NCBI GenBank assembly: GCA_052327205.1
Contig: CM126218.1
Span: 69,812,001-69,876,000 of the forward strand
DNA: 64,000 nucleotides
From: Somniosus microcephalus
Taxonomy: Eukaryota
Reading direction: 5' to 3'
Shown: in pieces, positions 21,485-57,896 of the stretch
Layout: each line of letters begins with the position of its first letter
Position numbering within the stretch: the first letter of the stretch is position 1
The notes under the pieces: model-generated
Told to the model about the DNA's origin: nothing
The model's database searches: none
The model's input: the letters and a program-made list of their open reading frames with translations, nothing else
Position numbers and translations under genes: made by a program

Positions 21485-24200
21485 GTACGGAGGGTGAAAC
21501 TGCACTTGGTTGGCTGAAATTGCTTGGATGTGTTGTAGAATGATTTTAGGGTGGTCTTTTTGGACCATGTTCATAGTTGTATTGTACAGAACAGGAATAT
21601 AGCAGTATCAATCCAAACTTTTCATTTCTTAGTATATGAAAAGGTTTTTCTGCTGAGCTTTCTAATTCTATGTGGTTCACAGCAATGTTGTTTTAGTCCC
21701 AGAAACCATTTTAGTTTTAGACTCTTTGGATATTGAGTTTTAGTCTTGGTATATTTATAGTGTTCAGAGGACATTTAGTTTTAAACATATTTTTTGTTCC
21801 CAAATTTTAATTGTCTTTTAGTCCTGGAAAATATTTTAATCAGAACATTTACTTTCTGCTTTTGATATTAGTGTTGTTTTTTCAGGATTTTCTTAATTTA
21901 TATTTCAAAACATATCAACTGTTTCACTTCTCAAGTCACAAAAATGTGGACTATTTAACTGGTGTTCTAGTCCTAGAAATAATTTTAGTCTAGTTATACT
22001 TCTCCAAACCTATTCAGTTTTATTCAATTTTTAATTTTCATAATTTAATCCTAAATTTAGTTTGTCAACAATATATCTTCCTTACTTTAGATGACACAAA
22101 CCACACTGGTTTACAATTATCATGATACAAACGAGGAGAAGCAGCAGTTGTGTTTTTTATTTTGCTGTGTGTGTCTGTACCAGGCAGAGCATTGGCCCAT
22201 ATCCATGTCGCTGTACCAGGCTGGAGTCTCCCCTCAATATCCACGTGTCTGTTTTTGTTTTGGCCACAGGGGCTTGGACAGATCAATTTATTCATTTTTT
22301 TTATTCCTCAATGTTTCTTTTGCAAGTTTTCCTCATTTAATATCTCCTTTTCCTCACTCGGTCAGTTGAAGAATGGCGCCTCTGACAGTGCAGCAACCCC
22401 TCAGTACTGCACTGGAATATCAGCCTACATTATGTGCTCAAGTTGTGGAGTGAGGCTTGAACCTGTAGCTTTCTGATTTGGGTGAGCGTGCTATCAACTG
22501 AGCCAAGATAAATCATACCCACGTTATCTTGTTACTTTTTGCGTTGGTGTGCACCTGAAACCAATCCACATCAACGCAACTGAGGCAGTGTCGCTGCTGC
22601 ACAAGACGCATTTAAGACTTGGTGTTCTTGCCTTTGTGATGTGTGATGGGATTTTTTTTGTGTATTATGTAGATACTTTTAAATCAGAATTAATATGCCG
22701 TGCTATTTCTGTATGCTGGAAATAGTGGGCTGAGCATGGTGGTATGCAGCCTTGTCGCACTGCTTAACCCTGAGCTGTCCCATTGCCACGGGAGTTTTGT
22801 TGCAATTCCAGAACATTACCCACTTGGCCTCCTTTCTTACTCCCTCCACTACTGAAACACTCATCCCCACCATCACCTCGAGGATTGATTTCTGTAATGC
22901 ATTCCTTTCTAGCCCCCTCCTTCTCTGCTTTTCACACATTCTGGATAATCCAGGGCTCTGCTTCCTGAGTCCTCCTCTTCACAAAGCCCCATCTTCACCA
23001 AGCTCCACTGACTCCATGTGCTCCACCAAATTAGCTTCAAGACCGTTCTCGTTGTTTTCCGACCTCTCTGACGCCTCACCTCACCATATATGGGAAACCA
23101 GTTTTCCAGCTGCACGGCATATCCCGCACCCCCTCTTCCTCTGGCTCCAGATTGTTGATCATCTCCTGTCCTCCAGGACACACTCTACCAGAAGCACTCC
23201 TAAATTCATTATTCCCTACTTGCCGTCTGCCTCTCCTCCTTGTAACGTGCTCTTCAGACATTCTTTTACACCAGGAAGATTACGTCAATGTAATTTGTCA
23301 CTAAACTGTTTTCCCACTGATTAGGATCTCTTCACCACAGGGTCATAATTTAGCAACAACTTGATTGTAAACTGGCTGCTGAATTGTCTCGGGAGGGCTG
23401 GGTGTGGTTGTATTATTTCACTGACCAATGCAACCTATTTTATCTGAACAGTAATTGTGATGCGTTTAGTGCCGTTTCTTGACACAAAAGGTGGAATCTC
23501 TGTTGATGGTTTTTTCCTTCTCCATCCTTTTTGCCATCCAGGCATTGCAATTTTGAGGGGAATGGGGGGAGAGGCGTATAACCATGCGTCTTACTCGAGG
23601 CTGGGGATTAAAAGAGGGCAATGACTGAAATGTGAAAATCATTATGAAAAATTATTGCAGATTTCAGTATTTATACTGATCCTCTGGAAGGTCAGTAATC
23701 CTGTAAATGTAGCTTTGTTTTAACCTGGTAATATATCATGGATTCCTCGTGATTGATCGGCATCAGCACTGACGATTTCTGGATTTCTTCTTGGTTTATT
23801 AGCTGGTTAAGGAGGGCAGAAAAGTTGTTCCTGCAGCTCTGTCAATGCTGCTGTGTAACCAGTGGGTAGGTATGAAGGAGCAGGAGGGGATTACTGTCCT
23901 GATAATTAAAAAAATATATACCTGTGTATATATTTTACCCTCTCTTGTGGCAGAATGGCCTCCACTCATCACCTGTCTGCCCCCACCCCCTCCAAGTGGT
24001 AACAGCAATGTTGTGCACTTACCATATCGGGGAAGTGCTAGCCAGATCCCACACCTACCCACCATATGGCATGGTGCATTGGTTGAGCCAATACACTGTG
24101 CAACCCAGTTAAGTTGTTTATAAACACCGGTAAACATGCTGATCCCAGATTCTTGAAACCAATCTACAGTAAATACCCTTTCCATTTTTCTTATGAATAG

Positions 24201-24494
<294 letters not shown>

Positions 24495-26420
24495 TGAAGT
24501 CATCGTCATTGCTCGCCTATGTATCTTCTCGGGCAATAATCACCGTCCTGTAACTCAGTAACCAGAACTGTGCATGTAGTACTCCAGATGGAATTTCCCA
24601 ATACCTTGTGCAGCAACAGTGCAGCCTCTTTGATTTGTACTGCCTGCCTCTGCTGATGCAGGAAAGGTGATGTACCATTCACTCCCCTGTATTTAAAAGA
24701 CATAAAAACATATACACAGGTTTGGTTGTGTATAGATTTCATAGGTAGAACCTTTGAGTAATTGAATTATTTCTGTATTAAACATTACATTTTTGTTTAG
24801 ATTGAATCAATAGATCTATAGTGGCAGCAATGCAAAGACTACAAGCTGGCTGTTCTAACCAGTTAGTAGAAATACTGATCCCAGCATAACTGTGGCAAAG
24901 TAGTTGTGTTTGATTCAAAATTGCACTGAATTTGGTGTGTGGTTTTTAGATGGTGAAAGTATATTAGTGGCACAGCATGCTGGGTATCTGTGCATGATGC
25001 AGTGCAGTTTCAGTTGCCTCACCCATTTCTTTGAGTTTATGATCACTGCTACTTTGCTGGGGGAGATGCTGAATGGAGATCAAGGGCCTCCTTACAGAGG
25101 GGGCAGGGAGGAGGGAAAATCAGAGGGCGAGTCATTTTTGGGCCAGCATTGCTGGAGACCTGGTGGTAGGTTGCCTGTTCATTCAGTAATTGGTGTGTTG
25201 TCCAGGGGCATGGGTAGAAGATAGGTCGATTTCACACCTTCCCAAAAATACAGGGACAGTACCAACTTAAATACATAAGATGCCAGTCATTAGCACGATC
25301 CAGTTTATTCTGTAGTGCCAGTCGACAGCAAGACACAAGATGCAGTTGGGATGATTGATAGGGTGGGGTGTTCACAGGAAACATCAGCACTCATTGATGA
25401 TATTCTGTTCTAAAGTCGTCATACCATCGCAGGTAGCTTGAATTAGAACCTAGAGAGGGGTCTAAGTGCACGAATAAGGACCTGTGGAGATAAATGAAGA
25501 GGACAGGAAGTCAAAGATCAACTGGGTTGCGTCTCCTTCAGTATGTTTCCACTCTTGGATGGGTGGGTGTCACGTATTCAATTTTTTTCCCCAGTTATCT
25601 AATGTTGAACCGATCAGCCTGTTCCATCTCTCCCAGCTTTCATTCAAACTTTTTTTTTAATTGCCATCCCAAGCACTTCTCTACCTTTTTCAAAAAAAAA
25701 TTTAAAAAATAAAAATAAAAAATTCTGACAATCCATCTTTTTGACACAACTTTTGGTCACAGTCCATGGCTAGGCACCCATTCACCAACTTCTGTTTGTG
25801 GAGCACTTTGGGATACTTTTTACATTACACGTGCTATATAAATGTTGAAATATAGACTTACCATAAGCCTGGCAAGAGTGTTTCTGCAACTTCTAAATAC
25901 CACAGTTATTTGCTGTTTTCACCCATGACAGTTACCAGTCTTGGGACTGCTGCAGATTGCAATGTACCTATGCAGAGTGGCTTCAGGTTGAAGTAAATCA
26001 CTCCCAGTATTGTTGATTTTTTTTTTCTGCAATACCATGACTTTGGCCAATTTCATTTTATCCTCTGAATGAAACATTCCATTTATTATAAATGCAAGAA
26101 TCTGAAAATTCAGCACCGTGTGTTGCCTGTGCAAAGGATTAATCTGAATAGATCAGTGCTGTGTATTGATGCTGTACTGTTGAGAAGAAAGTCTCGGTAT
26201 AACTACCCCCTGCCATCACACTGTTAACAGCTTTATTCTTTGAGTTATTAAGGATTTATCGCACTGCAATTATTACTGGAATCTGAACACAGCCTTGCAC
26301 TGAACTGCATTAACCGCCAAGTGATCGCTTGCTGCTTGCTTCAAATCTGCCTGCATCTCTCCATCGTTCTGTAGTGATGGAACTAGCCACTAACCAGCTT
26401 CTTTTTTTCTTCCTCTCCAG

Positions 26421-26450
26421 AACTGATGGGTATGTCTAATCAAAATAATG
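26421..26450 (+). CDS. Candidate cassette microexon in intron 2 (9 nt ELM or 30 nt ELMGMSNQNN)
   Basis: Branch point cactaac (26388-26394), long pyrimidine tract plus cag, donors gtatgt (26430) and gtaagc (26451); both keep phase 1 with no stop. Confidence 0.55.
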
Positions 26451-26904
26451 GTAAGCAGATGGTAGAAATAGTTTGGAAAAAAATGAAGCTGTTCGTAGAG
26501 ACAGGTACGAGAAAGCGATCACTTGTCCCAGCGTATGCTCACCTGCGGCAATTGCATCTCATCTCAAAAAAGGACAGGCAGAGGAAGCCATTTTGCAGCT
26601 GGGAAGATAAGCCACCTTAAGATAGTGCCCTGTTACAGTGAACTTGATATTTTCCTTTTTGGGAGAGGGAGGGGGAATATTGTGAATAAAACTGGAAATT
26701 ACTGACGGCAATATTAGGGAACAAGTGCTAAACACATCCACATGATGTTCCTTTTGGTTTTTTAGTGGAGGCAATAACCTATTTTAAATAAACAGGCTAA
26801 TTGCGATAATATAGCAGAGCAGTGTTTATCCTACAAATTCATTGTGTGTTCACTAACGTCACCACCAAAAATTTCTAGATCCATATTTTTGGGGGTATTT
26901 CCCT

Positions 26905-32049: not shown

Positions 32050-33115
32050 CTACAGAACTCTAACATTATTGTAGTGAAATCAAAGCAGCGTTTGACCAAG
32101 TATGGAACCATGGAGCCCTGGAACAACTGAAAGTCATTGGGGGCCAAAGAGAAAACCCTCCAGTGGCTGGAGTCATACCCGACGCACAAGAGGATAGTTG
32201 TTGTCGAAGGCTAGGAGATCGCTGCTGGAATTCCTCAGGGAAACATCCTAGGCCCACCATCTTCAGCTGATGCATCAATGACCTTTTCTCCATCAGTATG
32301 TCAGGATTGGGATGGTTCACTGGCGATTCCAGTGTTCTGCTCTATTGACAATTTCTCCAAAAGTGAAGCGGCCCATGCCAGCCTACAGCAGAACCTGGAT
32401 AACATCCAGGTTTGGGCTGACAAATGGCGGGTAACAGTCGTGCCACATAAGTACCAGATAATGACCATTTCAAACAAGGGAAAGCCCAGCCACCTCCTCT
32501 TGCCCCTCAACGGTAGCACCATCGTTGAGGCTCCCACAATCAACATCTTGGGGGTCACCATTGACCAGATGCTGAACTGAACCAGCCACATCGAGACTGA
32601 ATACTCTGCAGCGAATCGCTCACCACCTGACCTCTTAAAGCCTCTCTACTATCTACAAGGCTCAAGTCAGTGGTTTGATATTGCCATTTGCCACTCACCT
32701 GCCACTTGCCACTCATCTGGATATGAGCAGTTTGCTTGAACAGTGCCCCTGCCACTGGACTCAATATCCACCACTGTGGCTGCCGTATGTATGATCTACT
32801 GGATACATTGCAGCAACTCATCAAGGTTACTTTGACAACACATCTTTCCCCTGCAACCTCTACCACAGAGAAGGACAAGAGCAGCAATGTCATGGGAGCA
32901 CCATCACCTCTAAGCTCCCCTCCAAGCCAAACACCATTTTAACTTGGACATATAGCACTGTTCCTTCATTGTCGCTGGATCAATATCCTAGAATTCCCTA
33001 CCTAGCACCATCATGTGAGCACAGTCACCGCAAGGACTGCAACAGTTCAAGGAAAAGGCCCACCATCATCACCACCTTAGGACAACTAGGGATGGGTAAT
33101 AAATGTGACCATGTC
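32050..33115 (+). mobile_element. Second CR1-group LINE family, 3' part
   Basis: LQQNLDNIQVWADKWRVT, NILGVTIDQ; tail ...caactagggatgggtaataaatg shared with 37515-37820. Confidence 0.8.
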
Positions 33116-34391: not shown

Positions 34392-34634
<243 letters not shown>

Positions 34635-37514: not shown

Positions 37515-37820
37515 GGGCAGCACCTTCCAAACTCACGACCTTTACCACCTAGAAGGACAAAGGCAGCAGGCGCGTGGGAACACCACCACCTCCAAGTTCC
37601 CCTCCAAGTCACACACCATCCTGACTTGGAAGTATATCGCCGATCCTTCATCGTCGCTGGGTCAAAATCCTGGAACTCCCTCCCTAACAGCACTGTGGGA
37701 GTACCTTCACCACACAGACTGCAGCGGTTCAAGAAGGCGGCTCATCGCCATCTCAAGGGCAACTAGAGATGGGCAATAAATGCTGGCCTTGCCAGCAATG
37801 CCCACATCCCATGAACAAAT
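37515..37820 (+). mobile_element. 3' end of the same LINE family as 32050-33115
   Basis: Shared text gggtcaaaatcctggaactccctccctaacagcactgtgg...gggcaataaatgctggcc. Confidence 0.8.
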
Positions 37821-43974: not shown

Positions 43975-45150
43975 ATCTGCAAATGTAACGCCGCTATTCA
44001 AGAAAGGAGAGAGAGAGAAAATGGGGAACATCAGTCATTGGGAAAATGCTAGAATCCATTGTTAAGGAAATGGTATCAGGGCACTTAGAAAATCGTAACA
44101 TGATTAGGCAGAGTCAACATGGTTTTATGAAAGGGAAATCGTGTTTGACAAATTTATTGGAGGTTTTTGAGGATGTAACTAGCAGGGTAGATAAAGGGGA
44201 ACCAGTGGATGTAGTATATTTGGATTTCCAAAAGACATTCGATAAGGTGCCACATAAAAGGTTATTACACAAGATAAGGGCTCATGGGGTTGGGGGTAAT
44301 ACAGTAGCATGGATAGAGGATTGGTTAATGTACAGAAAACCGTAAGGATAAACGGGTCTATTTCAGGTTGGCAGGCTGTAACTAGTGGGGTGCCTCAGCT
44401 ATTTACAATCTATGTTAATATCCTAGACGAAGGGACCAAGTGTAATGTATCTAAGTTTGCTGACAATACAAAGCTAGGTGGGACAGTAAGCTGTGAGAAG
44501 AACAGAGTCTGCAAAGGGATATAGATAGACTAAGTGGCAGTGAGGTGGCAGATGGAGTATAATATAGGGAAATGTGAGGTTATTCACTTTGGTAGGAAGA
44601 ATCGAAAAACAGAATGTTTTTTAAATGTTGGTGTTCAGAGAGATTTGGGTGTCCTCGTGCAAGAAACACAGAAAGCTAGCATGCAGGTACAGCAAGCAAT
44701 AAGGAAGGCAAATGGCATGTTGGCCTTTATTGCAAGGGTGTTGGAGTATAGTAAGGAAGCCTTGCTACAATTGTACAGGGCTTTGGTGAGACCACACCTG
44801 GAGTACTGTGCACAGTTTTGGTCTCCTTATCTAAGGAAGGATATATTTGCCTTGGAGGCGGTGCAACAAAGGTTCACTAGATTGATTCCTGGGGTGAGAG
44901 GGCTGTCCTATGATGAGAGATTGTGTAGAATGGGCCTGTACTCTCTGGAGTTTAGAAGAATGAGAGGTGATCTCATTGAAACATACAAGATTCTGAAGGG
45001 GATTGACAGGGTAGATGCTGAGAGGTTGTTTCCCCTGGCTGGAGTGTCTAGAACTAGGGGGCATAGTCTCAGGATAAGGGATAGGCCATTTAAGATCAAA
45101 ATGAGGAGGAATTTCTTCACTGAGGATTGTGAATCTTTGGAATTCTCTGC
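43975..45150 (+). mobile_element. CR1 LINE RT fragment (decayed)
   Basis: QHGFMKGKSCLTNL, YLDFQKTFDKVPH, KFADNTKL, VRPHLEYCAQFWSP across frameshifts. Confidence 0.92.

Positions 45151-57574: not shown

Positions 57575-57896
<322 letters not shown>

Follow-up and report, generated by a model that had tools for sequence, protein, structure and literature searches.

A dual-donor, frame-preserving microexon in elasmobranch AHCYL2 at the seam between two phosphorylated patches

Introduction

IRBIT (AHCYL1) and Long-IRBIT (AHCYL2, also named SAHH3) share a serine-rich region that has been termed the PEST domain (PMC4930912, PMC7898672). According to one account, Ser68 of IRBIT primes CK1 on Ser71, Ser74 and Ser77, and on Ser80 as well according to earlier work cited there; CK2 phosphorylates Ser80, Thr82, Ser84 and Ser85 (PMC13319452). 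The same account describes two binding sites, with binding to the IP3 receptor core that is additive and much greater with PKD/CK1 plus CK2, and proposes that high-affinity binding of the IP3 receptor depends on cooperation between the two patches. Its docking model places pS80, pS84 and pS85 in the IP3 pocket, and pS71, pS74 and pS77 as a peripheral anchor at the rim. It also reports that in vitro neither patch depends on the other for its phosphorylation, and that a mutant without residues 1–77 still binds after CK2 (PMC13319452).

Related requirements have been described for NBCe1-B. Its binding by mouse Ahcyl2 requires the four upstream serines (PMC4930912), and single changes in IRBIT at Thr82, Ser84 or Ser85 lower its activation by about 30–60%; the interaction is described as electrostatic and the downstream half is said to matter too (PMC7898672). 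Long-IRBIT and IRBIT are reported to differ in target affinity (PMC7966362). These binding data are all mammalian and mostly concern IRBIT.

Frame-preserving microexons in disordered binding regions are a well-known kind of splicing event. Here, we describe such a case in the window, a 64,000-nucleotide stretch of DNA from the shark Somniosus microcephalus: an optional in-frame microexon that has a single acceptor and two donors in AHCYL2 of elasmobranchs. RefSeq annotation already includes it with both donors; what is new is a testable link to the two-patch model of target binding.

The gene and its flanking exons

Protein matching of exon peptides identifies the gene of the window as AHCYL2 and not as IRBIT/AHCYL1, for which an earlier sequence-only reading had taken it. 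The exon peptides fit AHCYL2 better: within the best 120 matches of the downstream exon, the named ones are AHCYL2/SAHH3, with a few exceptions that are hypothetical, unnamed or fused models, and a stretch aligned to the solved AHCYL2 chain differs at 2 of 32 positions, compared with 5 for AHCYL1 over the same stretch. The AHCYL2 model of the zebra shark Stegostoma tigrinum (XP_059510498.1) maps across the window exon by exon, its first exon lying outside. The downstream exons of the window resemble the records of sharks and skate more closely than those of Callorhinchus, and none of five cartilaginous-fish records matches them fully: each shows one or more residue differences that do not lie at exon edges.

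Two coding exons flank the microexon, with residue numbers taken from the register match described below:

24201..24312, + strand: upstream AHCYL2 coding exon, ending in phase 1 directly after the codon of the Ser77 equivalent
34420..34563, + strand: downstream AHCYL2 coding exon, starting with the Ala78 equivalent and encoding the Ser80, Thr82, Ser84 and Ser85 equivalents

The solved AHCYL1 and AHCYL2 chains match the downstream exon only from its residues 11 and 16, so the microexon junction lies outside the solved chains.

Some further features of the locus can be mentioned. The upstream exon has a tandem acceptor, TAG then CAG, at 24199–24203; use of the second start, 24204, would gain or lose one Gln, and isoform pairs of white shark AHCYL2 show a one-residue length difference. 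The exon at 57599–57697 ends in a stretch encoding an NTEID-like peptide, of which two more degenerate copies are found at 57675–57810 in the downstream intron, as if locally duplicated. A 250-nt interspersed repeat at 32856–33105 has a copy at 37538–37782 (76% identical), and an open frame at 44779–44966 resembles the tail of a LINE reverse transcriptase.

Splice signals of the microexon

The sequence-only reading had pointed to a branch point, a pure pyrimidine tract, an upstream YGCY cluster and two donors, and all of them are located at 26326–26456. YGCY is an MBNL-type motif. The elements are:

26326..26341, + strand: cluster of four YGCY motifs starting at 26326, 26330, 26333 and 26337, a putative MBNL-type binding site
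26388..26394, + strand: predicted branch point CACTAAC, also an ACUAA element; its branch A, at 26393, precedes the exon by 28 nt
26398..26420, + strand: pure pyrimidine run of 21 nt (26398–26418) and AG acceptor (26419–26420)
26421..26429, + strand: 9-nt exon form, adding ELM; donor GTATGT at 26430–26435; the same insert is found in white shark X3/X4
26421..26450, + strand: 30-nt exon form, adding ELMGMSNQNN; donor GTAAGC at 26451–26456; the identical insert is found in zebra shark, white shark and skate
26421..26504, + strand: possible 84-nt in-frame form with an open frame and a third donor, GTACGA

Canonical branch point, tract, AG, GT and a preserved frame are thus all present. Scripted joining of the 9-nt and 30-nt forms to the flanking exons reproduced the earlier statement that both inserts keep the phase with no stop. 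The 130 nt that follow the acceptor contain ten GT dinucleotides, of which the three in frame give exons of 9, 30 and 84 nt. The 84-nt form, which the sequence-only reading had overlooked, was set aside, as none of the 342 protein records that span the junction uses the third donor. By length, the 9-nt form falls within both the strict (3–27 nt) and the broad (up to 51 nt) definition of a microexon and the 30-nt form within the broad one only.

How strong are these signals? On a simple splice-site matrix of our own, built from approximate vertebrate frequencies, the acceptor ranks first among the 4233 AGs on the + strand of the window, above the gene's own constitutive acceptors. The 30-nt and 9-nt acceptor/donor pairs rank first and third of the seven candidates of 3–60 nt above the cut-offs. 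On both strands of the 64 kb, no other AG is preceded by an unbroken stretch of 18 or more pyrimidines, a threshold derived post hoc from the site itself. The YGCY density of the cluster is likewise unmatched in the 64 kb in windows of 16, 30 and 50 nt, again with post hoc thresholds taken from the site.

An alternative first exon starting at the ATG of the microexon was ruled out by the strong acceptor and by the internal position of the insert in all six records that carry it. A search of the upstream + strand with 53 short N-termini likewise revealed no short alternative first exon.

Occurrence in gene models

The six listed RefSeq models of the white shark Carcharodon carcharias contain the long, the short and the skipped form: X1/X2 have the 10-residue insert (XP_041058499.1, XP_041058500.1), X3/X4 the 3-residue insert (XP_041058501.1, XP_041058503.1), and X5/X6 skip the exon. 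This coexistence of three forms, two models each, bears out the proposal of a frame-preserving microexon with both donors. The exact 10 residues recur in isoform X7 of the zebra shark (XP_059510498.1) and in X3 of the skate Rhinoraja longicauda (XP_078275693.1). In one model of Scyliorhinus torazame, the exon is skipped. Counted over all records that bear an elasmobranch name, 6 of 9 contain the insert. The sequence-only reading had made its case depend on conservation in other elasmobranchs, and at the protein level the insert is indeed found in two sharks and a skate.

A wider comparison covered 445 proteins, for which each cluster contributed its representative and no more than 15 members (15 of 1219 for the largest cluster), with one search built to rank inserts first. 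Junction-spanning records were picked by sequence pattern, which gave 342 records, the other 103 being non-spanning. The junction is plain in 300 of them, 6 carry the present insert, 29 a 39-residue insert, and 7 are singletons. The microexon insert was seen in none of seven Callorhinchus records and in none of the junction-spanning records examined beyond the elasmobranchs, an absence that is weak evidence because of the cluster sampling and the insert-first search design. A search of metagenome contigs for the exact exon with its splice sites gave 0 matches, which is expected for a vertebrate intron and uninformative.

These records bear on the simplest objection, namely that the site is a cryptic pseudo-exon whose annotation stems from rare mis-splicing. 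The sole support for the exon among sequence records comes from automated models, the RefSeq X-isoforms, to which no tissue or function is attached, and a short-protein search found the insert in 0 of 43 unnamed transcript fragments. Against this, separate models in three species give the same boundaries and the same peptide as the window, and we consider a pseudo-exon very unlikely. Automated RefSeq isoforms are usually backed by aligned transcripts. We are highly confident that the exon is truly spliced.

That the exon had not been described holds for the literature searched, in which no published description was found; the scope of that search lacked most subscription journals, supplements and splicing-database tables. 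It does not hold for gene catalogues, RefSeq having the exon with both donors.

Position relative to the phosphorylation sites

The serine and threonine positions given for human IRBIT (62, 64, 66, 68, 70, 71, 72, 74, 76, 77, 80, 82, 84, 85 and 90; PMC13319452) offer a ruler for this region. On three insert-free AHCYL2 records a single register accommodates the whole pattern, 15 of 15 positions, while a fourth record, with an insert of its own, reaches 10 of 15. Acidic positions reported at 73, 83, 86, 87 and 88 (PMC7898672) agree with the same register, in which the junction falls between the Ser77 and Ala78 equivalents.

This placement changes what the insert can be expected to do. The sequence-only reading held that inclusion breaks the CK1 spacing before Ser77, the last serine of the 68/71/74/77 series, and thereby cuts the relay. 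The insert does break one three-residue step; but Ser68, Ser71, Ser74 and Ser77 are all encoded upstream of the junction in the 15/15 register, so the relay is left intact, and a cut within it is scarcely credible. Judged by the register, the step that is broken is the one from Ser77 to Ser80, and the insert separates the two phospho-patches.

Proposed effect on target binding

What might such a separation mean for binding? Inclusion would add 3 or 10 residues directly after the Ser77 equivalent. Met in the 9-nt form, or Asn in the 30-nt form, would then stand three residues before the Ser80 equivalent, so that CK1 priming of Ser80 by pSer77 would be lost. The same residues would provide extra slack, 3 or 10 residues long, between the anchor and the pocket motif. 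Because each patch retains its own kinase motifs, a graded weakening is expected: binding would be dimmed in two steps and not switched off. By analogy with the mammalian proteins, inclusion may loosen the coupling between the two phospho-patches and so tune the grip on the IP3 receptor and on bicarbonate transporters, a model to which we assign an even chance.

Several points speak against this coupling model. Independent phosphorylation in vitro and the binding of the mutant without residues 1–77 (PMC13319452) suggest that a flexible spacer might change little, and the target affinity of Long-IRBIT is unlike that of IRBIT (PMC7966362). AE2 binding needs no phosphorylation, and the RefSeq X-isoforms behind the exon are automated models.

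The insert could also act on another property than patch spacing, such as PEST turnover or cleavage, multimer behaviour or a short motif. Its 10 residues are kept letter for letter, beyond the need of a pure spacer, and include an acidic first residue, two Met and one new Ser as candidate motif features. We recognize no known motif in the insert, which counts against such a role, and the 3-residue form has little room for one. The naming of the region as a PEST domain (PMC4930912, PMC7898672) and the reported differences in stability among Long-IRBIT splice variants (PMC7966362) would fit an effect of this kind, which we nevertheless regard as unlikely.

Strength of conservation

The insert is identical at 10 of 10 positions in the window and the three named species, two sharks and one skate. 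Sharks and skates split roughly 250–300 million years ago. For comparison, 74 of 96 columns are invariant in the disordered N-terminal arm of these three species. At that rate, ten invariant columns have a chance of about 0.07, and among the 87 ten-column windows of the arm 6 show no variation. Measured against this control, the identity of the insert is weak evidence of selection; it fits constraint without proving it.

The control lends some weight to a third reading, in which the exon is truly spliced but is a nearly neutral spacer, tolerated in a disordered region where binding is charge-driven and independent of spacing. The chance of only about 0.07 relative to the N-terminal arm is joined here by unrelated inserts and a deletion at the same junction elsewhere, which fit tolerance as well as function, and by the electrostatic nature ascribed to NBCe1-B binding (PMC7898672). 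On the other side stand the identical peptide in sharks and skate, an acceptor that outscores all other AGs of the window, and two annotated donors that both preserve the frame. Neutrality seems somewhat unlikely to us.

The same junction in other vertebrates

The unrelated changes at this junction deserve a closer look. An in-frame insert of 39 residues between the Ser77 and Ala78 equivalents occurs in 29 of the 342 records, from turtles, Alligator sinensis and Rhea pennata. Homology of the shark exon with this turtle insert was rejected, the sequences being unrelated (best match to the window, E = 0.25). Judging from the sequences, the 39-residue insert is likely independent in origin and looks like a separate archelosaur cassette.

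A shortening is found as well. Seven records, four from the tailed frog Ascaphus, two from the chimaera Callorhinchus and one from the smelt Osmerus, have a five-residue deletion that includes the Ser80 and Thr82 equivalents. Such a deletion would result from splicing to a CAG that lies 15 nt inside the downstream exon. The window has the same CAG, and its AG at 34433–34434 is a possible alternative acceptor that would delete five residues.

Single AHCYL1-named models of Anguilla and Saguinus show inserts of 11 and 9 residues, respectively, at the same junction; these may be donor extensions or model errors.

Of the 342 records, 42 have a non-modal length here, versus 0–17 of 201–368 at each of 13 other junctions; the comparison is biased by how the searches were designed, by relatedness among the species and by the location of the 13 other junctions in a folded domain. 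Repeated tuning of the Ser77/Ala78 seam is thus a lead, not proof. A bolder extension would see the intron between the CK1 and CK2 patches as a splicing dial reused across vertebrates (+3/+10, +39, −5), which would reset the phospho-code by tissue and re-rank the IP3 receptor, NBCe1-B and other partners; we consider this idea rather doubtful.

The reach of the finding is limited: the exon is already catalogued, it is found among elasmobranch records only, and its event class is well known. If inclusion is regulated, though, it would offer two natural spacer mutants at the very seam of the patches proposed to cooperate in IP3 receptor binding (PMC13319452), and the two-site model could be tested directly with +3, +10, +39 and −5 variants.

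Comparison with known regulated microexons

A tiny exon that is skipped in some models has the strongest acceptor of the window, and this suggests either the limits of exon definition or active repression. We propose that the exon is skipped by default, through its tiny size and through repressors that would act on an otherwise very strong acceptor. Their motifs point to QKI at the ACUAA branch point and MBNL at the upstream YGCY cluster as putative repressors. Upstream binding of MBNL tends to repress, and the site shares with MBNL-regulated exons a dense YGCY cluster, here with four motifs in 16 nt, which is unique in the 64 kb.

For QKI, competition with SF1 for an ACUAA branch point, with QKI repressing, has been described (PMC13004596). 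Like the exons repressed in this way, the shark exon has ACUAA at its branch point (CACTAAC, 26388). The model exon of that study has two ACUAAC elements (PMC13004596), whereas a single ACTAAY is found here within 200 nt upstream. A second CACTAAC lies at 26851–26857, about 400 nt downstream of the microexon; it is one of four in the window and a possible QKI-type element.

The neural microexons controlled by SRRM3/4 are likewise tiny and frame-preserving, with a strong branch point and tract (10.1101/2024.09.17.613571). In that report, UGC is present in 79% and 74% of two classes, the motif not being strictly required, and tract and branch point are set back from the AG, whereas the tract reaches the AG here. 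UGC is absent between the branch point and the AG of the shark exon, the nearest upstream TGC lying 69 nt before the exon and beyond the branch point. An SRRM4-type neural signature was rejected, as there is no UGC after the branch point.

The muscle microexon of Snap23, under the control of QKI, RBFOX2 and MBNL, offers another parallel, as it is a short in-frame exon with QKI- and MBNL-type motifs nearby (PMC12064062). In Snap23, inclusion is activated by QKI and RBFOX2 from downstream sites, while in the shark gene the ACUAA coincides with the branch point. GCATG is absent from 200 nt upstream to 330 nt downstream of the shark acceptor.

The closest comparison within the gene itself is with the N-terminal variants of Long-IRBIT, V3 and V4, which are reported to show that AHCYL2 splicing alters stability and target range (PMC7966362). 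These variants alter the N-terminal arm, which precedes the serine-rich region, whereas the shark exon lies inside that region. If its inclusion is regulated, the microexon would add a second layer of splicing, within the serine-rich region, to the known N-terminal variants of Long-IRBIT.
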